A DNA stretch of 64,000 bases from Verrucomicrobiales bacterium. Lineage in GTDB: Bacteria > Verrucomicrobiota > Verrucomicrobiia > Limisphaerales > J093. The position numbers were made by a program, and so were the translations under genes. Of this stretch, positions 5,920 to 55,623 are shown in pieces. The DNA lies in contig JACKPW010000009.1 of NCBI GenBank assembly GCA_024233215.1, positions 53,067-117,066 on the forward strand, given 5' to 3'. Below the pieces are notes generated by a model. The model was given only the letters and a program-made list of their open reading frames with translations. It made no database searches and was not told the origin of the DNA. Position 1 is the first letter of the stretch, and each line of letters begins with the position of its first letter.

Positions 5920-6070
5920 CCGGCTGGCCGCCCGGGAGCCGGAACGGGCGCTCCGGGAATCTCCCTGGAAAAGGCATGACCAAAGCACGCATCGACGTTG
6001 TTGAGGAGGGGGGCATCGGGTCCGGTGTAGCCTGCTTCGCCGGAGGCTTGCCCCCGGAATGGTCCTGGTG

Positions 6071-29258: not shown

Positions 29259-32200
29259 CTATTCCTCGACCCGATAGAACGCCTGCGATTCCGTGGCGGT
29301 CACGGTGTAGGGATTCGAGGCGTCGGGGATCTCGGTCCAGGGACCCGTGACGGCGGGGGCCGCCAACAGCTTCTGGCCCGCGGCCGTTGGAGCCCAGGAG
29401 ATGGACACCGTGCTGCCGGTTCGAGCGATCTCGAGTTGCACGGAGGGCCCGCTGCCCTCGATGTTCAGGTAGCCCTTGAGATCGACCCGCAGGCCGGTGG
29501 GGCCGGGGGTTTCTCCCGCGTTGTTCACGAGGAACTCCAGGGTGTTCACGCCCTCGGTCAGACCGGTGGTGATCGTGAACGGCACGAGGCTGCCGAATCC
29601 CGGCGACGTGATGCCGGTGCTGGCGCCGTTGATCAGCACATCCGTAACCGAGTTGTCGGCGCCGATGCCTCCGACCACGCTGACCTTGCTCACGTCGTAG
29701 CCGGTGAGATCGAAGGTGGTCAGGTAGGCGTAGTCGCCCACGGCCGTCACCCCGTTGTCAGGATCGCCGCTCTGGTTCTGGTTCGCGTGCGGGGCAATCC
29801 AACTCGAGGTCGGACCGTTGGCAACCCACGGACCGGCGGGTGCGATGGGCCAGGCGTTGCTGACCACGATGGCGGCCGGCCCGGTGTAGACCAGGTCGGC
29901 GCTGGTGGTGAGGGTGTAGTGCGGATCCGTCGCGGCATCCGCCAACAGAGCGCCGTTGTCATCCACCCCCGTCCCGAAGAAGCCGGGCAACGGGCGGTAG
30001 GCGACAGTCACCACGGCGGCGGCACTGGTCTCGTTGCCCCAGAGGTTGGAAACCCTGACCGTATAGCTGCCGGAGTCGGTCGTGGTCAGGTCGGCCAGGG
30101 TGAGCGACGCCCCGGTGGCTCCGGGGATTGCCGTCCCGTTCTTCATCCATTGATAGTCGACGGGCAGGGTGCCGGTGGCCGTGACCTTCAGGACCGTGGT
30201 GTCGCCCTCGGCATACTTCCCGCCTGCCGGACCGATACCGATCCCGGCGGGAATGCCCGGCAACGTGCGGGCGCTGGTCTTGGTGAATTCCACCCGGAGG
30301 CCGGCAGGGCCGGCGGCCGCGTTGGCCATCTCGAAGTCGAGCGTGTTTTCCTCCTGGAGGAAGTCCACGTCATCACTCGTGATCGTGAAGGTGGTGAAGG
30401 CGCCGAATCCGGTGCTCAGCGGCACGGGCACGGTCGCCCCGTTGACGTAGACCGCCACGCCGGTGTTGTCGGTGGCCCAACCCCCGGTGATCTGGACGGT
30501 GTTCGTGTCGCGGCCACTCAGGTCGAAGGTGGTCCGATACGAGTAGGTTCCGGCGGCGATGTCGCCGTCCCCGACCGCTGCCCGTGAGCCGACCCATTTC
30601 GAGGTGTCCGTGTTCACCATCCAGACGCCGGCCTGGATCGGCCAGCCTTCGTTCCCCACGAACACGTCGGGTGAGCCGCCGTCCGGGTTGATCAGGAACG
30701 TCCAGTATGGATCCACGCTGCCGGCTGCGAGCGGTTGACCGTCGGCGCCGATGCCGGTGCTGCGCAACGACGGAATCGTCTCGAGCAGCGACAACCGTGC
30801 CACACTGCTCGTGGCGGTGCCGTGGTCATTGCTGACGACCAGGGCGTAGTCGCCCTCGTCGGCGAGCGTGACGGCGTCCAGGTTCAAGATGGGTTCCGTG
30901 GCGCCTTCCACGGGTTCCCCGTTCAACTCCCATTGGTAGGTCAGCGGCTGGCTGCCCTGCGCGGTGGCACTGAACGAGGCCGCTTCGCCCAGGTAGACGG
31001 TGACCGATTGCGGCTGGGTACCGATGCTCGGAGGGGTTCCCGCCGGGACCGCCACGACCGCCACGTTGTCCAGCAGGGCGGTGGAGTCGGTTCCCGCAGG
31101 ATTGGTGCTCTTGATGAACGCCAGTTCCAGATCGGCGGCCGTCGCGGTGAACATGCCACTGGTGATCTCGTGGTAGCGCTTGCCGGCGCCCACGGGCAGC
31201 ACCCGGTGTGCCGGCACTACGGTCGAGCCTCCGACCTGTACCTCCATTCCAGGAATCGTGACGCTTGTCCGACCGTTTTCAAAGTAGTGCAGATAGTAGT
31301 CGCCGCCCACGGTGAGCCCGGTCAATGTCTGACTCAGCATGCCCGGCCCCTGCAGGAACGCCACCTGGGTGCCGTGCGGCACGAGGCCGTTGTCCGCAAA
31401 CGGATTCGGCCCATTGGCGGGCGCACCCAGCACCGGGTTGAGGCCATGATTGTCGAGCGAGGTCCAGCCGGTGATCGGTCCGTTGTCATCCGCACCCGGG
31501 TTGCCCGCCACGTAGCCGGGCCAGGAGTAGAATTCATCCACCTCAAAACTTGGGTTGGTCATCGGGATGCCCACGGCGAGTCGGGCCGCCCGGCTGGTGG
31601 CGGATCCGGCGAGGTTTGCCACCACCACCTCGTAGCTGCCGGCCGCGGCGGCATCCACGGCGGCAATCGTCAGGGTATCCGCCGTCTCACCCGGCAGGTC
31701 GGTTCCGTTGTGACGCCATTGGTAGGTCGGGGTGGGCACGGCGTTGGCGGTGACGGTGAAGCTTACGGGCAGACCCGCGGTGACCGTGACGTCGCGCGGT
31801 TCGGCGGTGATGGTCGGGGCCACGTAGCGCGACACCGCCTCCCGGTTGCTGAAACCGTAGACGTGGAAGCTCACGTTCGCCGGGACGAACGGCGCGAACT
31901 TCATGGTCACGGTGCCGGTGTCGTCCGCCACGTATGTGTGGGAAATGCGGATGCCGACGTCGTTGTAGTACTGGTCCTGATTTACGGTCAGGTAGTCATC
32001 GCCCACGCTGAACGTGGCCCAGCGCGAGCCGATGCCCGGATCCTCCCATGCCACCGAATAGATCGTCATGACATACTCGGTTCCAGGCGTCAGGCCTTCG
32101 AGTTTGATGCTCTGATACAGTCCGGCGGGCACGTTGCCGCCGTAGACAAACTGACCGGCCATGACGGCACTGTCCCCACTGACGCCGGTGCTGGTGTCAG

Positions 32201-33017
32201 CGACGGGACCCGAGCCGAGGAATGTGGTGGAGAACCGGTCCTCCACGGCGGGGTTCGCTCCGGCCAGGCCCGTGAACGTGACGCCATTGATGGTGGCGCT
32301 TTCGTCACTGCCGAGATTGTAGGCGTGGGTGTAGAGGTAGCTCGCGTCCACGCCGACATCGAAGTCGGAATACCACTCCGCGATCGTCCACCGGCCCGAA
32401 CTGGGCTCGATGTGAAAATCGTCCACCAGCAGTGTCTGGTCACCCTCGGCGTCGTTCGCCAGCTTCAAGACCACGGAGGTGGTCCAGGCGTCGAAGTTGA
32501 ACGCCACGTGCCACCAGGGGTTCGAGGATCCCACCGAAGCCGTGGATAACCCCTCCACGGCGCCCCACGGGAATAGCGCGCCCACGTCATCGATATAGAC
32601 CTTCGCATGGGGCGTGTTGCCCGTGCGGGCGTTGATTCGGAAGCTCACGCGATAGGTGGTGCCCGGCACCAGGTCGGTGATGGTGGTGCTGAGCGTCGCC
32701 GGCGTGGCGGGATCGTCGGTGTTCACCTGGATGAACGCCACGTTGTTGCCGTCCGGAATCGCTCCGTTGTCCGCGAACGGGGCGCCGCCCGAGGGATTCA
32801 AGCCGACCCTTTCAGCCGGGGAGGCAGTCCATCCGGAGATCGGGCCGTTGTCGCTGATGTAGCCCGGATACACGCTGAAGGTGTCCGTTTCGAAGCTGGG
32901 ATTCGGAATGGTCTGGGCCTGAGCGGTCAGGGCGCAAAGGCCTGCGAGTGCCAGGAAAGGACCGGGCCGAAGACCGCGTGGCCGGGGCCGGGGAATGGTG
33001 ATCTGATTCATACGCAT
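29259..33017 (-). CDS. Giant secreted surface protein with three Ig (I-set)-like domains alternating with duplicated jelly-roll-like modules
   Basis: Signal peptide MRMNQITIPRPRPRGLRPGPFLALAGLCALTAQA. Ig-like YQWRHNGTDLPG...GSYEVVVAN, YQWELNGEPVEG...GDYALVVSN, YQWMKNGTAIPG...GSYTVRVSN. Duplicated NPSFE...GWT modules. Confidence 0.85.
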   Translation of the reverse strand: MRMNQITIPRPRPRGLRPGPFLALAGLCALTAQAQTIPNPSFETDTFSVYPGYISDNGPISGWTASPAERVGLNPSGGAPFADNGAIPDGNNVAFIQVNTDDPATPATLSTTITDLVPGTTYRVSFRINARTGNTPHAKVYIDDVGALFPWGAVEGLSTASVGSSNPWWHVAFNFDAWTTSVVLKLANDAEGDQTLLVDDFHIEPSSGRWTIAEWYSDFDVGVDASYLYTHAYNLGSDESATINGVTFTGLAGANPAVEDRFSTTFLGSGPVADTSTGVSGDSAVMAGQFVYGGNVPAGLYQSIKLEGLTPGTEYVMTIYSVAWEDPGIGSRWATFSVGDDYLTVNQDQYYNDVGIRISHTYVADDTGTVTMKFAPFVPANVSFHVYGFSNREAVSRYVAPTITAEPRDVTVTAGLPVSFTVTANAVPTPTYQWRHNGTDLPGETADTLTIAAVDAAAAGSYEVVVANLAGSATSRAARLAVGIPMTNPSFEVDEFYSWPGYVAGNPGADDNGPITGWTSLDNHGLNPVLGAPANGPNPFADNGLVPHGTQVAFLQGPGMLSQTLTGLTVGGDYYLHYFENGRTSVTIPGMEVQVGGSTVVPAHRVLPVGAGKRYHEITSGMFTATAADLELAFIKSTNPAGTDSTALLDNVAVVAVPAGTPPSIGTQPQSVTVYLGEAASFSATAQGSQPLTYQWELNGEPVEGATEPILNLDAVTLADEGDYALVVSNDHGTATSSVARLSLLETIPSLRSTGIGADGQPLAAGSVDPYWTFLINPDGGSPDVFVGNEGWPIQAGVWMVNTDTSKWVGSRAAVGDGDIAAGTYSYRTTFDLSGRDTNTVQITGGWATDNTGVAVYVNGATVPVPLSTGFGAFTTFTITSDDVDFLQEENTLDFEMANAAAGPAGLRVEFTKTSARTLPGIPAGIGIGPAGGKYAEGDTTVLKVTATGTLPVDYQWMKNGTAIPGATGASLTLADLTTTDSGSYTVRVSNLWGNETSAAAVVTVAYRPLPGFFGTGVDDNGALLADAATDPHYTLTTSADLVYTGPAAIVVSNAWPIAPAGPWVANGPTSSWIAPHANQNQSGDPDNGVTAVGDYAYLTTFDLTGYDVSKVSVVGGIGADNSVTDVLINGASTGITSPGFGSLVPFTITTGLTEGVNTLEFLVNNAGETPGPTGLRVDLKGYLNIEGSGPSVQLEIARTGSTVSISWAPTAAGQKLLAAPAVTGPWTEIPDASNPYTVTATESQAFYRVEE

Positions 33018-33456
33018 CGTGTACGTTGACGGTTGCTCACGGAGAATTCAGTGAACGACGCAGAGGTCTCAGGGGAAAGCCCCTGGGAACGAACTACGTG
33101 GTTCACGTTCTCCGGTTACCACGAGAGAGGTCCTCTGGCAAGCGCGCCGACGGGGGGAATGGCACCCGGCGTGCGCATCGCAGGTTTCCTGATCCCGGTT
33201 TCGTAATCGTCATCCTCATCGTAATCTCATGGACCGCATCCTGGGTCCCAAGAGGCCGCCGGTTTACGAGCAGGGGCTGGCTTGCATGGCCTGGGTGGAA
33301 CCGCTGCTGGTGAAGCGTGGGGATCGTGATTGCGAGCAGGCCCCGCGGGGGCTCCCCCGGCGGTTCGGTTGTGGAAACTGGTGAAATGCACACCTCTCGA
33401 CCGGACCTGCGCGAACTCGCTCGCAAGGAAGCTGCGATGAAGCTGCGATGAAGCTG

Positions 33457-33485
33457 TTGACACGATGCGTCGGAGGGCTCATTCT
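33457..33485 (+). promoter_or_regulatory. Candidate sigma-70 promoter of tRNA-Ala (TTGACA, 17 nt, CATTCT)
   Basis: TTGACA 33457-33462, 17-nt spacer, CATTCT 33480-33485, 18 nt before the tRNA 5' end. Preceded by the tandem 11-mer GAAGCTGCGAT x2.6 (33428-33456). Confidence 0.35.
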
Positions 33486-33502
33486 CTTCCCCGCTTTTGG
33501 CT

Positions 33503-33578
33503 GGGGTCGTAGCTCAGTTGGTAGAGCACCACAATGGCATTGTGGGGGTCAGGGGTTCGACTCCCCTCGGCTCCACCA
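33503..33578 (+). tRNA. tRNA-Ala (anticodon GGC), CCA encoded
   Basis: Cloverleaf read by eye: acceptor GGGGTCG/CGGCTCC with the G3:U70 alanine identity pair; D arm GCTCAGTTGGTAGAGC; anticodon stem CCACA/TGTGG with loop ATGGCAT; T arm AGGGGTTCGACTCCCCT; 3' ACCA. Confidence 0.95.
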
Positions 33579-33895
33579 GTTCAACACAAGCAAGAAGTCC
33601 AAGGGAAAACCATCTCCTGTGCGGGTTCCGTGCAGGCTCTCCGCAGCAGATCACGAAGTGGTTGGGGCGTGACTTCGCCGGGCGATGTGTGTCACCCGCT
33701 CGGACTTACCGGTGCCCGCGAATCCTTCGGGCTTGTTTCTTTTTCAGCTGCGCGCTTGACCAGCCGCCAACCTCGACGACATTGCGCCTGCGATGCATGT
33801 GCCCTCCAGCCTCCGGGGTGGGTGGGGGGCTCGGCGGAAACTCGCCCCACAAACTCAACCGACTCGCTTGACGTGTGAACCGTCGAGGCACATCA

Positions 33896-34060
33896 ATGAA
33901 GATCATCAAGAACGCAATCGTGCTTTCCGTGGCCGCCATCCTCGTGGGGTGTGCCTCACCAAGCAACGCCAAGGTGGAGCAGCCCCCCGCCGGCAGTTCA
34001 TCAACGAACCCGCCCCCGGCCTGGGTGCAGGAGATCGACTCACAGACCAGTGGATTCTAG
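33896..34060 (+). CDS. Small lipoprotein (54 aa)
   Basis: MKIIKNAIVLSVAAILVGCASPSN has a lipobox L-V-G-C. Lower G+C than surroundings. Its stop TAG shares the palindrome CTAG with the convergent gene's stop. Confidence 0.55.
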   Translation: MKIIKNAIVLSVAAILVGCASPSNAKVEQPPAGSSSTNPPPAWVQEIDSQTSGF

Positions 34061-34314
34061 TCCGATCTCGGGGAGTAGAGCACCGTGTTGACGGCTTGCT
34101 TCACGGTGATCCAGCCTTTTCGGTCCAGAATCTGCAGGAGCCGGCTGGCCAGCGAATCCAGGTAGTCCGTGTGCGCCTGGTAGATGTCAGCGACCAGTTC
34201 CGGGAACCTGGCCTTCCGGAGGTCACCGAATCGGACCGGACGATTGACGCCGCCGGCCTGCGTGATCAGCAGATCGAGCACCTGCCTTTCCTTGTCATTT
34301 AGCGGTTCTGGCAT
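34057..34314 (-). CDS. Hypothetical 85-aa cytoplasmic protein (helical, possibly wHTH-like)
   Basis: GGAGG Shine-Dalgarno 6 nt before ATG 34314. MPEPLNDKERQVLDLLITQAGGVNRPVRFGDL... No family recognised. Confidence 0.55.
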   Translation of the reverse strand: MPEPLNDKERQVLDLLITQAGGVNRPVRFGDLRKARFPELVADIYQAHTDYLDSLASRLLQILDRKGWITVKQAVNTVLYSPRSD

Positions 34315-34609
34315 GATTGCCTCCTTCTGAGTTCCCGACCTTCACCCTCTGCCGCCTCGGGGCACCGCCGCGAAACCTCGCGGAACCCGCCACGACCGGT
34401 CGGTCGGTCCGCCAGGCTTGGCGCCGGTCTGGCTGTTCCAGCAGATGGGATCATTGCAAAAAGTAGACACTCTTGTTTGATGAGAGTCAAGCTGTGATCC
34501 GCATGCCTCGTTGGGCTTGCCGGGGCGGGCAGCTGGGGCGCTGACCGCGTGCAAAAGACGGCTTGACGCAGGGGAGGTCTTTCCTGTCAAGTATGTCCTT
34601 GTATTGAAA

Positions 34610-35155
34610 ATGCGGCTACTTGCTTGTGTCATTCTCCTGGCTGCCCCCGCGCAGGCTCAGTTGCTGATTGAGGGTACCATGTCCGGGTCGCCCGCCTATG
34701 GCGGATCGAATCCGGTGAGCTTCGAGTTTTCCTGCCTCTTCGATGACAGCGCTCTGGTGGGCAGTGGTTCCGAGTCGTTCGTTGATCAGCCGTTGGCGAC
34801 CTTCACCCTCTCGCCCAATCCCTTCGGCAGCACCAGTTTCAACCTCGCGAACACCGGTGTCAGTCTGGGGTTCACCGATGGCGTGCTGGATTCCGTGGCG
34901 GTCGGCGGCCTGCTCAACGGGGTAATTCCGGTGATCGGCACCACGGATGATTTCGTGGGCCAGTTCTTTGATTTTGGTGCTGGCTTGCAGCCCTACAGCC
35001 TCACCGCCAGCGTCGCGACGCAGTCTGGAACAGCCACTGTCTATTTCCCGTCGGGCAACATGACGGTGACGCCCGTTCCCGAGCCGCACGTGTATTCCCT
35101 CCTGGCCGGTCTGGGTGTTCTGGGTTTTGCGGCCTTCCGGCGACGTCGGTCCTGA
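34610..35155 (+). CDS. PEP-CTERM sorting-domain protein
   Basis: Signal peptide MRLLACVILLAAPAQA. C-terminal VPEPHVYSLLAGLGVLGFAAFRRRRS (PEP motif, TM helix, basic tail). Confidence 0.85.
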   Translation: MRLLACVILLAAPAQAQLLIEGTMSGSPAYGGSNPVSFEFSCLFDDSALVGSGSESFVDQPLATFTLSPNPFGSTSFNLANTGVSLGFTDGVLDSVAVGGLLNGVIPVIGTTDDFVGQFFDFGAGLQPYSLTASVATQSGTATVYFPSGNMTVTPVPEPHVYSLLAGLGVLGFAAFRRRRS

Positions 35156-39460: not shown

Positions 39461-39891
39461 GACGAGGGCGAGCGGGCACGACGGGTTGAGCCGTGGCAAC
39501 TCAGTCGAATCGGGAATGATACGGATGTCTGGTATGTGGCCTGTCAGAGCCTGGAGCTGGAAAAGGGACGGCCTTCAGGATTAGGTTAGCCTTGCGGCCG
39601 GGAGGATAGGGCTCTGCAGGAGTGCAACCTGGGCGCCCGGCCGTCCGTGGAATGCAGGCCTGTATCCCGTCCCGGCCGGAGTCCCAAATCCCCCGTAGAT
39701 ATCGCGAATCTCCGCAAATCTGCCGGACGAGGCCGTCCGCCAGCACACGCGAGGGCGCGTATGCTCCCCAGGTAGTTGCGGCTTGTGCCGGCGGCTCCCG
39801 GACCTATCCTCCCGACCAGCAACACCCGTGGACGACCACAGCCGGAAACCGGCACCGGACGACACAACACGGCACCTGAAGGAGCATACTG

Positions 39892-42873
39892 ATGGCGCGA
39901 GACGAGGCGTATCGAAAAGCGGAACAGCGGATTGAAGCTGTGCGAACAGCAGAGGCGAAGGAACTCAATCTCAACGGGATGGGACTCGACGAGTTGCCGG
40001 AGTCGTTGGGTCGGCTCAAGCAGTTGGAATGGTTGAATCTCTCTGAGAACCGCCTGGCGAAGCTGCCTGAATCGCTGGGCCAGCTTACGCAGTTACGGTG
40101 GCTAGATCTCTCCGAGAACCGCCTGACGGAACTGCCGGAGTCGCTAGGCCAACTCGCGCAACTGCAGGTGCTTCATCTGTCCTTCAACCGCCTGACGGGA
40201 CTCCCTGCCTCGTTCAGCAAATTGAAGTCCGTTCATCAGCTTTCGCTCGGGGATAATAGCTTCTCGGACATGCCATGTGAGATCTTTGACTTAGTGCGAT
40301 TGGATTCGCTCACATTGGTCCGCAACCGACTAGCCACAATTCCGAGTGCCGTAAGTGGACTGACCGTTTTGCGGATTCTATATCTCGAAAAGAACCGGTT
40401 GATAGACTTGCCACCGTCGATGGCCCAACTTCGGTCTCTGAGAGATCTCCATCTCCACGACAATCCGCTGAACCCCGAACTGGGTGCCGCCTACAAAGAG
40501 GGCCTCGACGCCGTAAAACGCTACCTGCGCGCGAAGGCGGAAGCGCAGGTGGTGCTGAACGAGGCCAAGCTGATCCTGATCGGCGAGGGCGAAGTGGGAA
40601 AGAGTTGCCTGCTCGGCGCCTTGCGCGGCGATCCGTGGGAAGAGGACCGCTCCACCACGCACGGCATTGAGATCAAGCCGGTGAAGGTGAGCGATCCCGC
40701 CACCGGCACGGAGATCACCCTGAATGCCTGGGATTTTGGCGGACAGCGAGTTTATCGGCCCACGCACCAGTTGTTTTTCAGCGCCCCGGCGGTCTATCTG
40801 GTGGTGTGGAAACCTCGCGAAGGTCCGCAACAGGGCTTTGTGAAGGAGTGGATCAAGCTGGTGAAGCACCGCGAGCCGGACGCCAGAATCCTCGTCGTCG
40901 CCACCCACGGCGGCCCCAAGGAACGCCAACCGGACATTGACCGGCAGGACATTTGGGACCTTTTCGGCAAGGAGACGGTGATTCAGTTCTTCCATGTCGA
41001 AAGCAAGCCGCCCAAGTACGATAAGAAGAAACGTCGGTGGACGGGGGAACGCAGGGGAATCAAGCAGCTTAAGGACGTCATTGCTAAGTTGGCCGCCAGC
41101 CTTCCAGAGGTTGGCCGTTCAGTCCCCAAGCGCTGGCAGGAGGTGCGGGAGGCGTTGAAGCAGACCGGCGAGGCTTACCTGCCGCTGAATCGCGTCTTTG
41201 CGATTTGCACCGAGCACAAGATGACGGAGGAGGAGGCACAGGATTTCGTCCGCATTTCGCACCGGCTGGGTCACCTCATTCATTACGGGCACGATCCGCG
41301 ATTGAAAGACATGGTCATTCTCAAACCAGACTGGCTGGCGACGGCTGTGAGCTTCGTGCTGGATGACGAGGAGACGCGCAAGAAGCACGGGTTGGTGAAG
41401 TTCGCTCGTCTGGGGAAGCTCTGGAGCGATAGATCGCGCGGCGTGGAGTTCCGTTACCCTGCCAAAGTCCATCCCATCTTCGTCGCGTTGATGGAGCGGT
41501 TTGATCTTTCTTACCGCGTTGCAGGTTCGCCGTTGGGCGGGGAATCCGACCAAACCAGCCTGATTGCTCAACTGGTCCCTGACGTGCGGCCCGAGGTGGA
41601 CATTGCTCGCGAGTGGCCAGAGCAGCCCCAAGCAGGCGACGAGCAGCAAGTGCAGATGTGCCGCATCGTGGATGAGAAAGGACATTCCTGGACGGCTGAG
41701 GGATTGTTCTACCAACTCATCGTCCGTCTGCACAAATTCTCGCTAGGGTGTGAGGACTTCAACGCGAGCGTACACTGGCAGCGAGGTCTGATTCTGGACG
41801 ATGATTACAACGGACGGGCCTTGCTGGAGCATGTTGGCAACGATGTGCGGATCACTGTTCGCGCGGCGTATCCCGGCAATCTGCTGGCAGTGTTGACCCG
41901 TGAGGTAAAGTGGCTGGTAGAGAACTTCTGGGAAGGCTTGAAGTGTCAGGTAGTGGTCCCGTGCATTGAACCCTGCGGCAAGAAGCTGCCGGGAACCGGC
42001 TTGTTTGAGGTCCAGAAACTGATCGCTTTCAAGCGGCAGGGCATGACGCAGTTTCCCTGTAATGTGTCCGGCTGTGACCAAGCACATGACATTGATCGCC
42101 TGCTGCGCAACGCACCAGCGGCACGGCGTGATCCGCGGGAGGAGCTGCTGGCCGAGTTTGCCACGGTAAGGGTGGAACTGACCAAAGCGCGAGCCCAGAT
42201 GGCAGCGTTCCGTGGAGAGGCAGTATGTCGCTTCGACAAGCTGGACACTGGCACGCAGCGGATTCTGAGCAAAGTAGACGACGCGTTCGCCGGCTTGATG
42301 GCTGCCTACACGGACGAGGCCAAGGAAGGTCCACGTCTGTTCAGCTTCAAGCCGGTTGATCCGGGTTTCTTTGACCGGCCCAAGTGGATCAACCAGAAGT
42401 TCCGCCTGACCCTATGGTGCGAGCACAGCCGGCTGCCGTTGCCGGAACTGAATGGCAAAGGCAGCAAGGCGGGCGTGTATGAGCTGAACCTGCCCCGTGA
42501 GTGGTTTGAGCAGGCCGCGCCGTTCCTGAAGGTGCTCACCGGCACCCTGAGCCTTGTGCTGCCGGTGGCCGCGTCGGCCACGAAACTCGTGATGGATGAC
42601 ACCGCCTACAAGGGCCTGGAGAAGGAGTTGGACTTGGGCCAGAAGAGCCTCGACTCGGTGCTGAAGGGCGGAGGGAAGTCAGGCGCTTGGCTGGGTCGCA
42701 GCGACGCGCCGGACCTGGAACGTGGCGAAGCGATCCGGGCACAAGGGGCGGTCCTGCGGCAGTTGCACGCGTGGCTGAAGGAGAAGGACCCGAGCTTCGG
42801 CGGGTTGGTTCGCGTGATGAACAAGCGGCAGGAGTTCCTCTGGGTGCATCCGCAGTTTGAGGCGGAGTACTAA
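39892..42873 (+). CDS. Bacterial ROCO protein: about 7.5 LRRs, Roc (Ras-of-complex) GTPase, COR domain, plus about 250-aa unassigned C-terminal module
   Basis: GGAG Shine-Dalgarno 7 nt before ATG 39892. 23-aa LRRs (LxLSxNRLxxLPESLGQLxQL) at aa 25-195. P-loop LILIGEGEVGKS (K237). G3 WDFGGQ. COR-like region to about aa 740 with CxxxC...CxxxxC. TAA stop. Visibly lower G+C than flanks. Confidence 0.9.
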   Translation: MARDEAYRKAEQRIEAVRTAEAKELNLNGMGLDELPESLGRLKQLEWLNLSENRLAKLPESLGQLTQLRWLDLSENRLTELPESLGQLAQLQVLHLSFNRLTGLPASFSKLKSVHQLSLGDNSFSDMPCEIFDLVRLDSLTLVRNRLATIPSAVSGLTVLRILYLEKNRLIDLPPSMAQLRSLRDLHLHDNPLNPELGAAYKEGLDAVKRYLRAKAEAQVVLNEAKLILIGEGEVGKSCLLGALRGDPWEEDRSTTHGIEIKPVKVSDPATGTEITLNAWDFGGQRVYRPTHQLFFSAPAVYLVVWKPREGPQQGFVKEWIKLVKHREPDARILVVATHGGPKERQPDIDRQDIWDLFGKETVIQFFHVESKPPKYDKKKRRWTGERRGIKQLKDVIAKLAASLPEVGRSVPKRWQEVREALKQTGEAYLPLNRVFAICTEHKMTEEEAQDFVRISHRLGHLIHYGHDPRLKDMVILKPDWLATAVSFVLDDEETRKKHGLVKFARLGKLWSDRSRGVEFRYPAKVHPIFVALMERFDLSYRVAGSPLGGESDQTSLIAQLVPDVRPEVDIAREWPEQPQAGDEQQVQMCRIVDEKGHSWTAEGLFYQLIVRLHKFSLGCEDFNASVHWQRGLILDDDYNGRALLEHVGNDVRITVRAAYPGNLLAVLTREVKWLVENFWEGLKCQVVVPCIEPCGKKLPGTGLFEVQKLIAFKRQGMTQFPCNVSGCDQAHDIDRLLRNAPAARRDPREELLAEFATVRVELTKARAQMAAFRGEAVCRFDKLDTGTQRILSKVDDAFAGLMAAYTDEAKEGPRLFSFKPVDPGFFDRPKWINQKFRLTLWCEHSRLPLPELNGKGSKAGVYELNLPREWFEQAAPFLKVLTGTLSLVLPVAASATKLVMDDTAYKGLEKELDLGQKSLDSVLKGGGKSGAWLGRSDAPDLERGEAIRAQGAVLRQLHAWLKEKDPSFGGLVRVMNKRQEFLWVHPQFEAEY

Positions 42874-42880
42874 GTTCCAG

Positions 42881-42909
42881 CCCCGCTGGCATCCCTCCGG
42901 GATGCGGGG
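42881..42909 (+). terminator. Stem-loop immediately after the ROCO stop (GCATCCC-TCC-GGGATGC inner stem, CCCC/GGGG outer stem); no U-tail
   Basis: Read directly, 8 nt after TAA. The terminator role is uncertain because the tail is not T-rich. Confidence 0.35.
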
Positions 42910-43324: not shown

Positions 43325-45457
43325 ATGACTGGTCGAATGAACACAACGCAGGTCCTGGGATTCAACGCGGAACGAACCAGGTTGGGATTGGCGATGGCGT
43401 GGATCGTTTGCGGAATGGTCGGAGGCTTGGGTGCCGCAACGTCGGCGGGCGAAGCCTGGCCCGGGGAGCAGTGGACCACGGCAACTCCAGCGGACGTTGG
43501 GCTGTCAGCCGAGCGGTTGCAGGAGGCCCGCGACTACGCCGTGTCAGGTGAGGGCTCAGGTTGCGTTGTTCGCCACGGTAAGCTGGTCTTGCAGTGGGGA
43601 CCGTCCGACCAGCTTTACGACCTGAAATCGACCTCGAAATCCATCGGCAGCACGGCGCTCTGGCTGGCGCTGATGGACGGCAAAGTCAGCCTGGATGATC
43701 TGGCGAAGGATCATCACCCCGCCTTTGGCGTGCCACCGGAAAGCAATGCCGATACCGGTTGGCTGGACCGGATCACGTTGCGAATGCTCGCCGGCCAGAC
43801 CGCCGGCTTCGCGAAACCCGGCGGTTTCGAACCGCTACTCTTCACGCCTGGCACGCGCTGGCACTACAGCGACGGCGGCCCCAACTGGCTCGCCGAATGC
43901 CTTACCCGCGCCTACGGTCGCGATCTTGACGATGTCCTGTCCGACCGGGTGTTCACGCCGATTGGCATCACGCGTCGCGATCTGCGCTGGCGCGCGAATG
44001 CCTATCGACCGCATCAGATTGACGGCGTTGAACGGCGCGAGTTCGGGTCGGGCTTCCACGCGAACGTGTTGGCGATGGCCCGGATCGGTCTGCTTTACCT
44101 GCGTGAGGGGAAGTGGCGGGATCGGCAATTGCTGCCGCGGGAATACGTGGTCGCCATTCCGCGAATGGAGTCGGGCCTGGCGGAACTGCCGGTGGATGAG
44201 CCGGGGAACTACGGGCGGGCGTCGGCGCATTACCACTGGCTTTGGTGGAACAACGCGGACGGCTCGATCCCGCACCTTCCCCGCGACGCGTTTTGGAGCT
44301 GGGGTCTCTATGACAGTTTGATTGTGGTGGTGCCGAGCCTGGACCTGGTGGCGGCCCGGGCCGGGAAATCCTGGCCGCGTGAGCGTGGTGCCGATCACTA
44401 CGCGGTGCTGCAGGGCTTTCTCACGCCGCTCGGTCGCGCGGTTGCAGAAAGTGAAGGCGCTTCGTCGACCGAGGCATCTCGGGTCTCCCCGAGCGGCGCG
44501 CCGGCCAGTCCGGTCATCCGGACCATCGAATGGGCGCCGGCGGCGGAGATCATCCGAAAGGCGGCTGGCAGTGACAACTGGCCAATGACGTGGGCGGACG
44601 ACGATCAACTCTACACGGCCTACGGTGATGGTCGCGGTTTTGAGCCGTTTGTGCCGGAGAAGCTCAGTCTCGGGTTGGCGCGGGTGAGCGGAATGCCGGA
44701 TGGGTTCATCGGAATGAACCTGCGGGCTCCCTCGCTGGAGGCGTTGGGAGATGGCGCGAAGGGACGCAAGGCCAGCGGTCTGTTGTCGGTCCGGGGCGTG
44801 CTTTATCTGTGGGCACGCAATGCCGGGAATTCCCAACTCGCGTGGTCGCGTGATCACGGGGCCACCTGGACCTGGGCGGATTGGAAGTTCACGGAGAGTT
44901 TCGGATGCCCGACGTTTCTCAACCACGGACGTGACGACGCCGGGGCCCGCGACGGTTTCGTCTACCTCTTTTCGCCGGACAGCGAGGACGCCTACACGCG
45001 GGCGGACCGCTTTGTGCTGGGCCGGGCTCCGGTGGATCGATTGAGGGAACGGGCGCTGTGGGAGTTCTTCGTGAGCTTGGATCAGACCGGCGAACCGGTG
45101 TGGAGCCAGGATGTGGGCGAACGCGGCGCCGTGTTCGAGCGAGCGGGCGGGTGTTACCGTTGCGGGGTGAGCTACCATCCGGGGTTGCGGCGTTATCTCT
45201 GGTGCCAGACGGGCCCGGGCGAAGCGCCGCGGTTTGCCGGCGGGTTCGGCGTGTTTGATGCCCCGGAGCCGTGGGGGCCTTGGACCGAGGTGTTCTGGAC
45301 AGACCAGTGGGATGTCGGCCCGGGGGAAACCCAGAGTCTGCCGGTCAAATGGATGGACGCGGACAATCGGGCCATTCACCTGGTCTTCTCGGGGGATGAT
45401 GCGTTCTCGGTGCGGCAGGGGAGAATCGTGCTGCGGGATGACGGTGCTGCGAGGTGA
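43325..45457 (+). CDS. Secreted serine hydrolase (beta-lactamase/transpeptidase-like, class C fold) fused to a C-terminal beta-propeller-like domain
   Basis: S-x-x-K motif in LYDLKSTSKSIGSTALW, and YSDGGPNW. C-terminal 330 aa rich in W/G/D repeats (DNWPMTWADDDQLYTAYGDG...). Start ATG 43325 or 43337; the ORF-track start 42857 is rejected. Confidence 0.8.
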   Translation: MTGRMNTTQVLGFNAERTRLGLAMAWIVCGMVGGLGAATSAGEAWPGEQWTTATPADVGLSAERLQEARDYAVSGEGSGCVVRHGKLVLQWGPSDQLYDLKSTSKSIGSTALWLALMDGKVSLDDLAKDHHPAFGVPPESNADTGWLDRITLRMLAGQTAGFAKPGGFEPLLFTPGTRWHYSDGGPNWLAECLTRAYGRDLDDVLSDRVFTPIGITRRDLRWRANAYRPHQIDGVERREFGSGFHANVLAMARIGLLYLREGKWRDRQLLPREYVVAIPRMESGLAELPVDEPGNYGRASAHYHWLWWNNADGSIPHLPRDAFWSWGLYDSLIVVVPSLDLVAARAGKSWPRERGADHYAVLQGFLTPLGRAVAESEGASSTEASRVSPSGAPASPVIRTIEWAPAAEIIRKAAGSDNWPMTWADDDQLYTAYGDGRGFEPFVPEKLSLGLARVSGMPDGFIGMNLRAPSLEALGDGAKGRKASGLLSVRGVLYLWARNAGNSQLAWSRDHGATWTWADWKFTESFGCPTFLNHGRDDAGARDGFVYLFSPDSEDAYTRADRFVLGRAPVDRLRERALWEFFVSLDQTGEPVWSQDVGERGAVFERAGGCYRCGVSYHPGLRRYLWCQTGPGEAPRFAGGFGVFDAPEPWGPWTEVFWTDQWDVGPGETQSLPVKWMDADNRAIHLVFSGDDAFSVRQGRIVLRDDGAAR

Positions 45458-47967: not shown

Positions 47968-48106
47968 CGCGAACGCCGGACGGTGTCAGGCCAGGGTATC
48001 GGCAACCCCGCGGGAGCCTGTGCGGAAAAAGGCACAATACTCGGGACCGACCCCGCGCGCGGTTTCGCATCGACCTGCCCGGCGGACCTTTGGTTAGACT
48101 CGTTGC

Positions 48107-51100
48107 GTGGCCCGGAACGCTCAACAATCCGATTACCGGCATCCTGCCGGCGAATCCCAGTCCGCTCCGGCGGAATCACGAATCCTCGCAGGCCGGGGCG
48201 GGGAACCGTTCTGGCCGCGCTTGAACGGGTGGTTCGCGTCTGGCCTGGGGATCCTGGCGAGCCCGCTCATCCTCCACGCGGCACCAGCCTTTCTGGAGTT
48301 CCCCAACCTGGCCCGGGGGCGGGATTCCTACATGGTCCGTTATCAGGACAGCCTGCCGCCCGCCTCGAACGGCAACGACGGCAGCCTGGCCACCGAGGTG
48401 TTGACCACCGACAAGTCCGTGGACGCGTACTGGGAGGTCGACCTGGGGGAGCCGTACGCGCTGTACGGCGTTCGGACGATTGCCGCCAGCGGATTCCAGG
48501 CCCGGATGACGCATGCCACGGTGCGCCTGTTCGACGAGAATCACGACTCGGTCTACTCGCAGCATCTGGGCGGAAGCTCCGAGACGTTCGATGTGGTGTT
48601 GCCGGGCCCGGTGCGTACCCGGTTCGTCCGGGTTGGTTTCGAGAACAAGGAGCGTTCGCACCCGACAGGCGGGATCGAGTGGTACCTGGGACTGAAGGAA
48701 GTCGAGGCCTACGGCCGCCCGTTGGCGGAGGTGGGACTGCTGGGATTTTCGGCTGATACGACGCACATCAACGCCGGTGGCGAGGTGGCGTTGCAGTGGA
48801 ACCAGCGCGAACTGGAGATGCTGAACCTGCATCCTGGCATCGGGGATGTCCTGCCGAACACCCAACCGGACGGTTCCGGGCAGCGGACCGTGTCTCCGGC
48901 AGTCTCCACGGAGTTTCTCCTGGTGGGGACCAACCGGTGCGGACTCCACGCGCAGGGCGTCACGATCGAGGTGGACGGTCAGCCGTTGACGGTCCGATTC
49001 AGCGAATTCGTCGCGAACAACCGGCTTTCACTCCGGGACGGACACGGTGAAGCACCGGACTGGATCGAACTGCACAACCCGACCGACGCCGCGGTGGACC
49101 TGGCCGGGTGTGGTCTGAGCGATGATCCGGCCGAGCCGATGCGCTGGGTGTTCCCGACCGCGACGATTCCGCCGCATGGGTGGCGGGTCGTGTTCGCTTC
49201 CGGACGCAACGAACCGGTCGATGCCGGGGGATTCCTGCATGCGAACTTCCAGCTGGCGGCGGACGGCGAGAGCCTGGTGCTGACCGCGGCGGACGGGATC
49301 ACCACGTTGGACCGGATTGATGCCTACCCGGCGCAGGACGAGGACCTCGCTTACGGCCGCAACCTCGATGGGGAGTGGACGTTCCTGGAGCCCACTCCGG
49401 GGGCGGTCAATCTGGCCTCGAACTACGAAGGCTGGCTGCAGCCGGTCCGCTTCAGCCACACCCGCGGATTCCAGACCAACGCCTTTACCCTCACGCTCAG
49501 CCAACCGGATGAGGGGGCGGAGATCCTCTATGCCCGGAACGGCTTTGAACCCCTGCAGCGGTACATCGGACCGATGGCGATCAACGTGTCGGCCCGGGTG
49601 CGGGCGGTGGCGAAGCGGGAGGGCTACCGATCGCCGCGGGTGGAAACGCATTCCTACATCTTCCTCGACGACGTGATTACCGCTTCCATCATGAATCCGG
49701 CGATCACGCAGGATCCCCGGTATTCGAAGCGCCTCCGGCAGGGGATGGTGGATTTGCCGACGCTCTCCGTGAGTGTGTCGCAGCTGCCCGACGATTACGT
49801 GGAACGCCCCGCCTCGGTGGAGATCTTCTGGCCGGACGGGTCGGAGCCGGTCCAGGCGGATTGTGGGATGTACCGGTTTGGCGGGGCCTGGACCACCTTT
49901 GCGAAGAAGAACTACCGGCTGAAGTTCCGGCCCGAGTACGGCACCCGGAAACTCCAGGCACCGCTGTTCCACGGTTTCGATCGCGGCTTTCTGGCGGTGG
50001 ATTCGTTTGACGAGCTGGACCTGCGCGGCGGTTCGCACGACATGCTCTCGCGGGGCTTCTACATGTCCGCCCGGTTCACGGAGGACACCCTGCTCGACAT
50101 GGGCAGCCTGAATCCGCACGGCCGTTTCGTGCACCTTTACCTGAACGGCGTCTACTGGGGGCAATACCACCTGCGCGAGCGCCTCAACGACCGCTTTCTC
50201 GCCGACTACCTCGGCGGTCCGGAGGAGGATTATCTCACCGTGCGCGGCAATGACAACGTGGGCAGCAGCTTCATTCCCGGCACCCCGGATCCGCCCGACC
50301 GCGAGCCCTGGGAATGGGTGCGGGCGAACCGCGGGTCCTATGCCACGGTGAAGGAGCGGCTCGATGTGCCGCACCTGATCGATTTCATGCTGATGTGGTT
50401 CTACGGAAACGCGGAAACCGAGTACCGCGCCGCCGGCCCGCGGGCTGCCGGCAGCGGCTTCAAGTTCTGGTTGGCCGATGCCGACGGTTACCTGCGGAAC
50501 ACCGGCGACACCACCGGCAACCCCGGTCCGGGCGATCTCTTCGGGGCCCTGACGTCCGAGCGCGATCCCGAGTTTATGACCCTGCTGGCGGACCGCATCC
50601 ACCGGCATCTGTTCAACGACGGCGCCCTCACACCGGCGCGCAACACCGCGCGGTTGGACGAGCGCATGAACGAAATTGCCAACAGCCTGATGGCGGAATG
50701 CGCCCGCTGGGGGGAACGCACCCCGGAGAACTGGCAGGCGGCGGCCGAGGACATCCGCACCGGCATGTTCCCTTCACGGACCGCCACGTTGGTCAGCCAG
50801 CTCAGGTCGCGCGGGTTCTATCCCGCCGCGGATGCGCCTGTGTTCAACCTCTACGGCGGTCACGTCACGAACGGGTTCGTGGTCACCCTGGCCGCCGGCA
50901 CCGGGACCCTGTACTACACGCTGGATGGCACCGATCCCCGGCTGCCGGGAGGTGCGGTGGCGCCGGGGGCCATCGCGTATTCGGGGGGGGAGGGACTGTT
51001 TCCGCTCGGTTCCGAATGGCGCTACTGGGATGCCGGCACGCTGCCGGCGGAGGATTGGAACCAGCCTGCATACGACGACTCCGGCTGGACATCCGGGAAT

Positions 51101-53566: not shown

Positions 53567-53624
53567 GGTCCCGTGATCGACTGACCCTGCGAACCCCATG
53601 CGTTGTGAATCGGAAACGAAAGCC

Positions 53625-54437
53625 ATGCAAGTCATGAAGACAAATCTGCGGCGCCGTGCAGGGAGCGACGCCTTCACCTTGATCGAACTGCTGGTGGTGA
53701 TTGCCATCATCGCCATCCTGGCGGGCCTCCTGCTTCCGGCGTTGTCGAAGGCCAAGGTGAAGGCGAAGCAGACCGCCTGCATCAACAACCTCCGGCAGAT
53801 CGGCATCGGCACGGTCATGTACCTCGGCGATTACCAGAAATATCCCGGGTGCATCGACGCGCGCCCCGGTCCGGGTTACTTCACCTACCTTTGGCCCCGG
53901 CGCCTGCTCTCGCTGATGGGCGACAGTCGGGATGCGTTCTGGTGCCCCGCGGCCCCGGTGGATGCGCGGTGGAATCTCGACGACAACCCAACCCTGACCC
54001 AGGGGATCGATTACATCATCGCCTCCCCCACCGGCACCAAGTTCAGCTACGGCTTCAACGACTGGGGCCTTCGCGATCCCGGCCTGTCCCGCAACATCGG
54101 CCAGTTGGGCCTCGGCGGTGACATCGGCATTGTTAATGAGGTGTCCGAAACTGCCGTGCGCAGTCCTTCCGACATGATCATGCTGGGCGACTCGAAATCC
54201 GACCGGGCATGGGACGGCAACATCGATCCGAAATCGTCCCCGGACTGGCCCTCCAACCGACACAGCCGGCGGACCTCCCTTATGTTTGCCGATGGCCACG
54301 CCGAGACGGCCCTGCGCGAGAAGATCGTCGATCCCGAAGAGGACCAGTGGCGCCGTCGATGGAACAACGACAACCAGCCGCACAACGAAATCCGCTGGAC
54401 GATCGATCCGGACCTGGAAGCGAAGATCGATCCGTAG
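53625..54437 (+). CDS. Prepilin-type N-terminal cleavage/methylation protein of the DUF1559 (H-X9-DG) family
   Basis: [29 protein letters not shown]; C-terminal [13 protein letters not shown]. Confidence 0.9.
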
Positions 54438-54579
54438 TGAGTGTTCCGAGCTGAGTTCGCCGACGTCAGTCGGTGCCCGTCGACCCAACGCCAGAAGGCC
54501 CGGGCATCATCTGAAAGACCGGATCGACGCGGGCAGATTTCCGGAAGGAACCAGCGCCTTGGCGAGTAACAAGAACCTG

Positions 54580-54607
54580 CCCGGCTCGCGGGAAGCCGCG
54601 AGCCGGG
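54580..54607. terminator. Strong GC hairpin between convergent genes (12-bp stem CCCGGCTCGCGG/CCGCGAGCCGGG, GAAG loop)
   Basis: Read directly. Followed on the + strand by CAACCTGTCCTTGTCTGTC (moderately T-rich). Confidence 0.55.
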
Positions 54608-54642
54608 CAACCTGTCCTTGTCTGTCGATTCCTGAACGCTCC

Positions 54643-55206
54643 CTATTCCCCGGTCGGGGTGGCCGACTGGCGGTTCGTCAGGCGTCGATACGCCGCCAAG
54701 CCCGGCAGAGCCAAACCCAATAGGCATAGGGTAACGCCGCTGTCAGGAACCGGGGTTCGGTCGTAGGGTCCTCCAGTGAACGAAAAAGTGTAACTGCTAA
54801 GGCCTCCGTTGTCCCAAAACGTGCGAAGGGTTAAGGGAAACCCAGAGCCCAACCCCGATGCGATAATGTCGATTGTCATGGCGCCCGGCATGGCACCATC
54901 GAGATGGAGGATGACGCTACCACTTCCCGATGAGGATCCGGTCCACTTTGCGTAGGTCGGGTTTATGAGGGAGCCATCAGACCCGTCGACTGTCAGTCCT
55001 GGCGACTCAAACGGACCTTGGCCGCTTTCACTGACCAGAAAGGCCTCGAGGGTCGTGAATGAGGCAAAACCACCGTAGCCAAAACCCGTGTCAAAACTCC
55101 CAGTCTCCACTGGGTCGAAGGATTCGATGATGGGCACTGCCAGGCAGTGAGGCGCACCGATCAACGCTGCGCAAACAAGCGGAAGCCAAGGGGTCATTGA
55201 TTTCAT
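54643..55206 (-). CDS. VPDSG-CTERM sorting-domain exoprotein
   Basis: Signal peptide MKSMTPWLPLVCAALIGAPHCLA. C-terminal PVPDSGVTLCLLGLALPGLAAYRRL. The gene and its upstream region have markedly lower G+C. Confidence 0.8.
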   Translation of the reverse strand: MKSMTPWLPLVCAALIGAPHCLAVPIIESFDPVETGSFDTGFGYGGFASFTTLEAFLVSESGQGPFESPGLTVDGSDGSLINPTYAKWTGSSSGSGSVILHLDGAMPGAMTIDIIASGLGSGFPLTLRTFWDNGGLSSYTFSFTGGPYDRTPVPDSGVTLCLLGLALPGLAAYRRLTNRQSATPTGE

Positions 55207-55623
55207 TTGAGTTCTAGAGATGTCGTCTTCTGTCGTGGGACCCGCTTCCATGTTCCTTCTGCCGTTGCAGCTGCGAGTCACCTAATGATAGCAATAAGCA
55301 ATTAAGATGCCAATTCTTGGAGGCAGTCTGGTTCTTGTTTTGGGCCTATTCAGCTATTGAATTGATCATCAATATGATACGTAGACGTGGATTGGCGCGT
55401 TTCCGGTTTGGATTGGCGTCGTAACCCGCAGTGCAGTTGTAAGGTTTGCGGACGTTTTGTTGGAGTGTATCTGCTCTTGGAGTAGCTAAGTGTATAATTC
55501 CAAACGCTTTGTGACCAAGTGAGCATGCGCGAAAAACGTAAAGTTTTGGCCCGGTGTCCGCCTCATGTTGCATGAGGTTTATTGTGAATGAGTTGTGCAA
55601 GTGCGGCCTTACCAGACCACTCG

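Follow-up and report, generated by a model that had tools for sequence, protein, structure and literature searches.

Bacterial Roco proteins serve as structural models for LRRK2, the Parkinson's-disease kinase, and no cellular role is known for them, CtRoco included. The biochemical literature regards the prokaryotic members as G-proteins of the LRR-RocCOR type without a known role (PMC6337361), and for CtRoco a GTP-driven cycle from a closed dimer to an open monomer has been described, together with a C-terminal tail of approximately 150 amino acids (aa) that is unresolved (PMC11052575). Immune surveillance, predicted in 2021, is the only role that has been proposed for bacterial Roco. In particular, Kaur, Iyer, Burroughs and Aravind predicted computationally a class of prokaryotic counter-invader systems centred on an AP-GTPase, in which N-terminal leucine-rich repeats (LRRs) that evolve fast are followed by AP-GTPase plus COR and by one of at least 24 alternative C-terminal domains, the outputs including TIR, caspase, trypsin, GT4, FGS, DRHyd and effector-associated domains (EADs) (eLife 2021, PMC8195603). 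A Roc-COR-CHAT protease from Runella was found to cleave a bacterial gasdermin (Johnson et al., bioRxiv 10.1101/2021.06.07.447441). Here we describe a ROCO gene located at 39892..42873 on the + strand of a 64,000-nucleotide (nt) stretch of DNA from a Verrucomicrobiales bacterium (contig JACKPW010000009.1), hereafter the window. The gene runs from an ATG start to a TAA stop and encodes a 993-aa protein with the architecture LRR–Roc–COR-A–COR-B followed by a C-terminal module (CT).

The protein shares with the class described in PMC8195603 the layout of LRRs, AP-GTPase/Roc, COR and C-terminal output, the encoding in a single gene and the kinds of organisms that carry it, and it shows the rapidly evolving N-terminal LRRs on AP-GTPase plus COR by which that class was defined. 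Indeed, two of its close homologues are listed in source-data files 18 and 20 of that work, namely NER35832.1 (F6J93_17900, here P0007; 55% identity) and RJO63533.1 (C4523_20060, here P0017; 69% identity, full length). Both are labelled 'LRR-repeats+AP-GTPase+COR' and, since these labels end at COR, the CT was not recognised there. At variance with the outputs of that class, the window protein ends in an orphan domain, and some of its relatives have TIR_2 in front of the CT core. The reading of the gene as part of a conflict system is not new, having been published computationally in 2021, and the original prediction, made from the letters of the window, is out of date in its view that no role has been assigned to bacterial ROCO proteins, given that publication and the Runella protease. 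The present analysis adds that the site is empty in the nearest relative, that diversification in syntenic orthologues is specific to the LRRs and that the G4 motif is fixed as THGG. It also delineates the orphan CT, which has a latent transmembrane (TM)-like hairpin and is linked to TIR and restriction-modification genes.

We consider that there is about an even chance that the protein is a self-contained intracellular LRR–Roc–COR surveillance protein, in which the CT would act as a latent membrane-active effector, and thus a functional analogue of NLRs. The conflict-system reading is supported only circumstantially, by the domain architecture, the distribution, the evolution of the LRRs and the associations with TIR and restriction-modification genes.

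Domain architecture and conserved motifs

The N-terminal part of the protein is an LRR domain (39946..40491, aa 19-200; this and the other features of the protein lie on the + strand) made of about eight units of 23 aa, as detected by Pfam LRR_8 (1.9e-25) and by a repeat scan. The Pfam LRR families cover aa 17-200, and the strict LxxLxxLxLxxN pattern fits six of the approximately eight units. This domain is presumed to be the ligand sensor. It is followed by the Roc G domain (40567..40908, aa 226-339 in the Pfam envelope; Pfam Roc, 5.2e-22), by COR-A (41125..41577, aa 412-562; PF16095, 6.4e-35) and by COR-B (41695..42108, aa 602-739; PF25497, 3.2e-23), which holds a cluster of Cys residues. 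COR-A and COR-B are found directly C-terminal of Roc, in the tandem order typical of ROCO, and by sequence the product of 39892-42873 is a ROCO protein. The same LRR–Roc–COR-A–COR-B order is present in CtRoco (PDB 6HLU, 8R4B) and MbRoco2 (4WNR), and the Roc-COR part of the window protein matches CtRoco, MbRoco2 and LRRK2, with phmmer values of 7e-38 to 6hlu over query residues 37-536 and, for the Roc domain, of 5.7e-17 to 4wnr. It differs from CtRoco in having a much shorter LRR domain and in its C-terminus: the idea that the CT corresponds to the CtRoco tail was rejected, as the CT profile has no match to the full-length CtRoco chain at E<=10.

A word-indexed search for homologues returned 2919 sequences at E<=1e-10, the best 120 of which, all full-length and with 55-69% identity, were used to evaluate the conservation of motifs; one 853-aa match reaches 74% over 87% of the query. 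The Roc domain contains the P-loop GEGEVGKS at residues 231-238 (with K237), the switch I motif TTHG at 255-258 (with T256), the G3 motif DFGGQ at 281-285 and the G4 motif ATHGG at 337-341. The first three are invariant or nearly so across the 120 full-length homologues, and ATHGG is kept in 119-120 out of 120. The original prediction had placed GEGEVGKS with K237, DFGGQ, VVATHGG at 335-341 and the residues C691, C695, C723 and C728 correctly, and the open reading frame (ORF) at 39892-42873 with its 993-aa LRR-Roc-COR product was recovered with the same domains. It had also termed the G4 degenerate, and this description is borne out: upon alignment of THGG to the THLD of LRRK2, Gly341 occupies the position of the Asp that LRRK2 retains. 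The canonical (N/T)(K/H)xD is thus missing, and the Pfam criteria still place the protein among the ROCO family. In CtRoco, the G4 is NKxD. Since the degeneracy is conserved in 120/120 homologues, it represents a fixed trait of the subfamily rather than decay. The replacement of the guanine-specifying Asp by Gly throughout the family implies that base specificity may be relaxed or altered.

The cluster in COR-B comprises C685, C691, C695, C723 and C728 (nt 41944-42075). C685, C691, C723 and C728 are present in all 120 homologues and C695 in 113 of them, and the cluster is probably, judging from the sequences, a structural metal site.

The C-terminal module and its fusions

The CT was delimited to aa 740-993 (254 aa), with a core at aa 807-993. 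When 1.84 billion cluster representatives were scanned exhaustively with HMMER, 615 carriers of the CT emerged, in which the CT is always C-terminal, and nearly all the full-length carriers have the architecture LRR–Roc–COR–CT. The module matches no Pfam family at E<=10 and nothing in PADLOC or PHROGs, its alignment profile has no match at E<=10 among all PDB sequences, and Foldseek found no relative for the 254-aa model in the PDB and BFVD or for a core-only model in the PDB. A WNK CCT-like domain, endonuclease V, ThyX and helical bundles recurred as weak matches of the CT and were dismissed, with E values of at least 0.6 and TM scores below 0.22.

The AlphaFold2 model of the CT (254 aa, 107 sequences) has a mean predicted local distance difference test score (pLDDT) of 83, with most core blocks at 83-97, and a predicted template modelling score (pTM) of 0.70. 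It consists of an N-terminal hairpin, a five-stranded sheet and a second long hairpin (aa 869-897 and 903-926). The N-terminal helical hairpin (42133..42309, aa 748-806), with helices predicted at 748-782 and 786-806, varies more than the rest of the CT (pairwise identity 47%) and represents the point at which TIR is inserted in relatives. The CT core (42310..42870, aa 807-993) is predicted to be alpha/beta, built on the five-stranded sheet, and is presumed to be the output or effector module. Its motifs, DEAxxGPRLFS, LWCEH, GVY, LRxLH, KDPxFGGLxRV and FLWVHPxFxxEY, are mostly located on the predicted sheet. C843, E844, P814 and G861 are invariant, R815 and W984 are invariant in a 21-sequence alignment and nearly so in a larger one, and the nearly invariant H845 (at least 90%), D808, Y863, D966 and H986 cluster on the predicted sheet.

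The centre of the second hairpin is a hydrophobic helix (42514..42594, aa 875-901), a candidate membrane-inserting element. Across the family its mean Kyte-Doolittle value is 1.3-1.4, and the best 19-aa window has a median of 1.58 and reaches at least 1.6 in 50 of the 107 members. In the CT proteins fused to TIR or DUF4062, which do not have the N-terminal helices, both helices of the hairpin rise to 2.2-2.3 and are TM-like. When the N-terminal helices are left out of the AlphaFold2 prediction, the confidence of the hairpin falls to about 50 and that of the sheet is still high, which suggests that the N-terminal helices pack on the hairpin.

The CT is also found in other protein contexts. Two ROCO proteins (P0059 and P0063) have a TIR_2 domain inserted after COR-B and ahead of the CT core, which is still 82% identical to aa 772-993 of the window protein. 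A 340-aa TIR_2–CT protein (P0186) is encoded in a cluster that opens with HsdM and HsdS, and a DUF4062–CT protein (P0163) directly downstream of hsdS. A lone CT (P0361), which may be a remnant, is separated by 480 nt from a Septu-like pair of an AAA_15/AAA_21 ATPase and an HNH protein. Finally, an nSTAND5-like region precedes LRR–Roc–COR–CT in P0244, the match being weak (30.2 bits vs a Pfam cut-off of 34).

The CT thus occurs with an NTPase core, with effector-type domains (TIR_2, DUF4062) and possibly alone, which are the three contexts of an adaptor. According to the effector-associated domain principle (PMC8195603), an EAD-like CT would recruit separate CT-bearing effectors, such as TIR–CT, by CT–CT contacts, or would drive oligomerisation. 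We regard this as unlikely, as there is no second CT gene within the 64-kb window and TIR–CT and related proteins are only a handful among the 150 representatives listed. With an adaptor CT, most carriers would be left without any effector. In addition, known EADs are small and mostly helical, with poor conservation, whereas the CT is alpha/beta, about 190-250 aa long and endowed with invariant Cys-Glu, Pro-Arg and Trp residues.

The clustering of invariant and near-invariant residues, including C843, E844 and H845, on the predicted sheet could also point to an enzyme, such as a Cys-Glu-His hydrolase or transferase, or to a receptor of a small molecule, for instance a nucleotide signal made by TIR, with the hydrophobic helix belonging to the core of the fold. 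Fusions of TIR with sensor domains are a common design, as in Thoeris and CBASS-type effectors, and count in favour of such a function. Nevertheless, an enzymatic or ligand-binding CT appears improbable, since no likeness in sequence or fold to known enzymes or ligand binders was found (best Foldseek E value 0.6-0.7, TM score below 0.22), and the TM-like hairpin of the versions fused to TIR and DUF4062 is hard to square with a purely soluble enzyme.

Additional observations concern individual CT loci. The non-ROCO CT proteins P0139 and P0163 have in common an N-terminal region (aa 1-190) with a Gly/Ala-rich hydrophobic stretch, LFYGSALLAIAATGGA, and with no Pfam match at E<=1; this region could be another conflict-system module. 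No domain could be assigned to the N-terminal regions of P0124, P0139 and P0203. In a cluster led by hsdM and hsdS (L112), a 46-codon ORF with no Pfam match is repeated after each large TPR-protein gene and on either side of the TIR–CT gene (3966-4106, 5142-5282, 9874-10014 and 11907-12047). In Candidatus Thiosymbion oneisti, the ROCO–CT gene has an in-frame TAG in the N-terminal helix of the CT in two assemblies (L006, at 5935-5937, and L007), because of which gene callers split it into products of 758 and 199 aa. The TAG may be a nonsense mutation or be read through; as it lies in frame inside the gene, the split was rejected as a proof of CT modularity. In Chlorobaculum, relics of the CT C-terminus of 47-64 codons, 80-87% identical, are present outside any ORF (L031, 6001-6141; L030, 108-305), and the relic of C. 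thiosulfatiphilum comes just after a cluster of putative vWA, PP2C-like and Ser/Thr-kinase-like genes, named from their translations.

Distribution, locus and evolution of the gene

The named sources of the best 120 homologues include Nostoc, Oscillatoria, Myxococcales, Deltaproteobacteria, Thermoguttaceae, Chthoniobacterales and Acidobacteriota, and the groups represented span Cyanobacteria, Myxococcales, Deltaproteobacteria, Planctomycetota, Verrucomicrobiota and Acidobacteriota. In species-representative genomes, CT identity is 82% for a Verrucomicrobiota copy, 80% for Synechococcaceae, 59-76% for Acidobacteriota copies, 60% for Methylococcaceae and 48-51% for Planctomycetota and Gemmata copies. 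In comparison, the best match of the host MnmE is 72% identical and belongs to a Verrucomicrobiales metagenome-assembled genome (MAG), all its best matches being verrucomicrobial. The identity of ROCO across phyla therefore rivals that of a core protein inside the host phylum, which argues for horizontal movement of the gene. The patchy distribution that the original prediction had proposed to look for is thereby found, in the form of a cross-phylum spread at 55-69% full-length identity.

The same Verrucomicrobiales MAG (L114), the nearest relative available, keeps the order TPR protein, alcohol dehydrogenase (ADH), flavin mononucleotide (FMN) reductase and MnmE at 69-72% aa identity. In this genome the ADH stop (8157) and the FMN-reductase ATG (8176) are separated by only 18 nt, and the segment 39461..45493 of the window, 6.03 kb that contain the ROCO gene and a beta-lactamase-family gene at 43337-45457, is absent from the junction. 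Acquisition of ROCO is the simpler reading of this indel, because the base composition and the cross-phylum distribution agree with it. Indeed, the G+C content of the ROCO coding sequence is 59.5% vs 64.9% for the window, and the locus is the lowest among 611 sliding 3-kb windows. With 28 other probable genes as the reference, ROCO deviates with z = -3.9 for overall G+C, -2.6 for the second codon position (GC2) and -2.0 for the third (GC3). Since both GC2 and GC3 deviate, the low G+C is due in part to a protein rich in Leu, Asn and Glu and in part to synonymous positions. The atypically low G+C inferred from counts in single 60-nt lines is in agreement with these values, and the counts themselves (28, 37 and 38) are exact on recount.

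Of all parts of the protein, the LRR domain evolves fastest. Across the family, the mean pairwise identity of the LRRs is 53%, compared with 80% for Roc, 66% for COR-A, 71% for COR-B and 64% for the CT core, and the length of the N-terminal (LRR) region ranges from 101 to 724 aa. The same trend is seen at a fixed locus: in syntenic acidobacterial orthologues (L013, L014, L016 and L019), Roc-COR and CT are 78-93% and 77-93% identical, respectively, and the LRRs are 55-60% identical over aligned residues and 198-293 aa long. Divergence of the LRRs this much faster than that of the other domains, with the locus unchanged, is what would be expected of an arms-race receptor.

A number of findings weigh against a role in conflict. 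As for the locus, the direction of the indel cannot be polarised, since there is one relative only, at about 70% aa identity, and the 6.03-kb segment also carries a second gene with normal composition. No integrase or transposase is found among the neighbours of ROCO, no tRNA adjoins it (the only tRNA of the window is 6 kb off, at 33503-33578), and a search for flanking repeats as insertion scars returned only short, imperfect two-copy pairs. In terms of known systems, the full protein matches 0 families of PADLOC-DB v2 at E<=0.1, the CT is absent from PLSDB plasmids, GenBank phages and IMG/VR, and no paper was found in the literature in which an LRR-Roc-COR protein is tested against phage. 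The inspected homologues stand alone among metabolic or housekeeping genes, without a conserved partner gene. Among 111 ORFs flanking 16 copies, there are about six specific defence-like PADLOC matches (two OLD/AriA-like ATPases, SduA, AbiLi, PDC-S03 and PDC-M72A), and the other matches are generic (RtcR, IscS-like DndA/SspA, Lon-like BrxL); as these counts stand without a scored control set, no enrichment in defence islands is claimed. The co-occurrence with defence islands raised in the original prediction is, in general, not observed, the flanks being mostly housekeeping. Four related Acidobacteriota hold ROCO in the same synteny, with the three nearest shared flanking proteins 77-95% identical, so that the gene is also inherited vertically over short distances and is not hyper-mobile. 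Vertical descent with housekeeping synteny and normal composition had been named as an outcome that would speak against a conflict system: conserved synteny is found in the acidobacterial clade, the composition is atypical. With regard to the proposed effector, the hydrophobic helix of the window protein itself scores about 1.4, which is under the usual TM threshold, the second helix is amphipathic, and the polar residues of the CT are highly conserved, which would suit an enzyme or a binding domain no less than a pore-former.

Part of this evidence would fit instead a signalling GTPase of large, complex genomes, acting in the envelope, in polarity or in development, whose LRRs track changing partners. 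The mostly housekeeping neighbourhoods without a conserved partner gene, the conserved synteny in the acidobacterial clade, the lack of mobile-element genes near ROCO and the absence of the CT from plasmids and phages all go in this direction, as does the biochemical view of prokaryotic Roco as LRR-RocCOR G-proteins without a known role (PMC6337361). Still, we attribute a small likelihood to such a cellular function. The cross-phylum identity far exceeds that of the housekeeping marker, the gene is missing at the same locus of the nearest relative, and in syntenic orthologues the divergence of the LRRs outpaces that of the remaining protein by 30-35 percentage points. The fusion or insertion of TIR and the linkage to restriction-modification and Septu-like genes likewise argue for a conflict system.

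In the window, the genes are arranged in the order LysR, TPR protein, Zn-ADH, ROCO, beta-lactamase-family protein, FMN reductase and MnmE. The immediate flanks are thus the Zn-ADH and the beta-lactamase-family protein, in keeping with the earlier description of the neighbours as functionally unrelated. The latter protein (43337-45457, 706 aa) combines a beta-lactamase-family and a DUF4185-like region, has a normal G+C and has homologues widespread in Verrucomicrobiota and Planctomycetota. A functional link between the two genes was rejected, as the pairing recurs in one distant case among 80 loci. In this case, a Pirellulaceae MAG (L058), a ROCO-like gene with 27-30% identity (6082-8108) lies about 2 kb upstream of a beta-lactamase-family homologue (10001-12064), probably by coincidence. 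No exact copy of the ROCO protein was found in the contig index.

The ROCO gene is preceded by an intergenic region or leader of 431 nt (39461..39891, + strand) with an AAGGAG Shine-Dalgarno sequence at 39879-39884, 7 nt ahead of the ATG, so that the gene has its own ribosome-binding signal as originally claimed. The leader contains a 9-nt perfect complement, GTATGCTCC (39759-39767) and GGAGCATAC (39881-39889), about 120 nt apart and paired in the minimum free energy (MFE) fold. This pairing could sequester the Shine-Dalgarno and mask translation of ROCO; the fold itself is not significant (z -1.9, with 7 of 200 shuffles folding equally well). The claim of a long structured leader is not supported, as folding does not differ significantly from shuffles (z +0.8, -1.6 and -1.9). 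The leader has no Rfam match and its + strand has no sigma-70-like promoter. Downstream, a hairpin was said to follow the TAA stop, and both elements are present: a GC-rich hairpin of 7 bp (42889..42905, + strand) starts 16 nt past the stop. It lacks a U-tract and does not exceed chance (z = -0.8), and it is not called terminator-like. The non-coding DNA beyond the gene, originally given as 450 nt, measures 463 nt up to the next plausible start at 43337.

Elsewhere in the window, a low-G+C stretch at 33001-35000 (0.61) surrounds the tRNA-Ala GGC gene (33503-33578), and another one at 54001-56000 (0.57-0.61) follows a gene for a DUF1559/N-terminal-methylation protein (53577-54437). Two large surface-type proteins are encoded at 48098-53566 (1822 aa, with CotH kinase, four lamin-tail domains, F5/8 type C and He_PIG) and at 29259-33047 on the minus strand (1262 aa, Ig-rich, with an HpiC1/DUF642-like N-terminus).

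Proposed mechanism and comparison with known systems

If the protein acts in surveillance, the following cycle may be envisaged. At rest, the LRR domain would be folded back on Roc-COR in a closed, autoinhibited and probably dimeric state, by analogy with the crystal structure of CtRoco. The diversifying LRRs would then bind a protein derived from phages, mobile elements or damage. The ligand would release the closed state and allow Roc, which retains an intact P-loop, switch I Thr and DxxGQ, to load nucleotide, and the conformation and the oligomeric state of Roc-COR would change, as in the GTP-driven opening of CtRoco. The signal would pass to the CT, whose amphipathic N-terminal helices would normally shield the hydrophobic hairpin. 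Once exposed, the hairpin would enter the cytoplasmic membrane and collapse its integrity or potential, thus killing or arresting the cell and aborting the infection. A further step, catalytic or ligand-binding, may be contributed by the Cys-Glu(-His) patch on the CT sheet. In the variants with TIR ahead of the CT core, a killing activity of the NADase type, with depletion of NAD+, might be added to this output or replace it. A bolder version of this proposal, in which the CT would be a new latent membrane-inserting death domain whose hairpin is released by a Roc-COR switch devoid of the guanine-specifying Asp and perhaps driven by a nucleotide other than GTP, is advanced tentatively and is rather doubtful. 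That the protein could instead be a secreted LRR effector acting on a eukaryotic host or prey, like the type III LRR effectors, is very improbable: partial NCBIfam matches of the LRR region to XopAC, XopAE, XopL, SlrP and internalins exist, but they are confined to the LRRs and score 16-96 bits vs cut-offs of 450-1700, no secretion-system gene is found among the ten neighbouring proteins scanned, Roc-COR requires cytosolic nucleotide, and the carriers are free-living bacteria of soil and water.

As a candidate for testing the 2021 prediction, the ROCO–CT family is compact, counting about 2900 homologues and consisting of a single gene for approximately 1000 aa, with K237, T256, C843/E844/H845 and the hydrophobic hairpin as handles. 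If a phage defence function were true, it would establish a non-STAND, GTPase-driven branch of NLR-like prokaryotic sensors, with a new effector domain and an in vivo read-out of Roc-COR; otherwise, the gene would be an ordinary accessory signalling protein. Under the bolder version above, with the CT as a latent membrane-inserting death domain, a Roc-COR switch of the LRRK2 type would gain its first physiological read-out in a bacterium, and the family would represent a bacterial GTPase-based counterpart of the CC (coiled-coil)/HeLo-type NLR 'resistosome' effectors.

With respect to described systems, the Runella gasdermin system has in common with the window protein a bacterial Roc-COR module, which is there coupled to a cell-death output. 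In contrast to that two-gene arrangement of a CHAT protease and a gasdermin, the window ROCO has no gasdermin-like neighbour and no protease domain, as no peptidase domain was found in Pfam searches, extended to E<=10 for the CT. The comparison with STAND and NLR proteins made in the original prediction holds for the sensor–switch–output architecture and not for membership. Indeed, only the Roc, Ras and Arf families of Pfam match the NTPase region, with no NACHT or NB-ARC, and no Avs or bNACHT model of PADLOC matches the protein. As Roc is a small Ras-like GTPase, the likeness is one of analogy: in place of a STAND ATPase, the switch consists of a TRAFAC GTPase of the Ras-like kind plus COR, and its parts run sensor–switch–effector, the reverse of effector–switch–sensor. 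In CC and HeLo domains, a shielded hydrophobic helix is released, to which the proposed CT hairpin can be likened by analogy. Collectively, the window ROCO has in common with Avs/AVAST, bNACHT, plant CC-NLRs (ZAR1) and fungal HeLo-NLRs the tripartite logic of repeat sensor, NTPase switch and death effector, and with STAND and NLR sensors in general a diversifying repeat domain and swappable effector modules, TIR among them.

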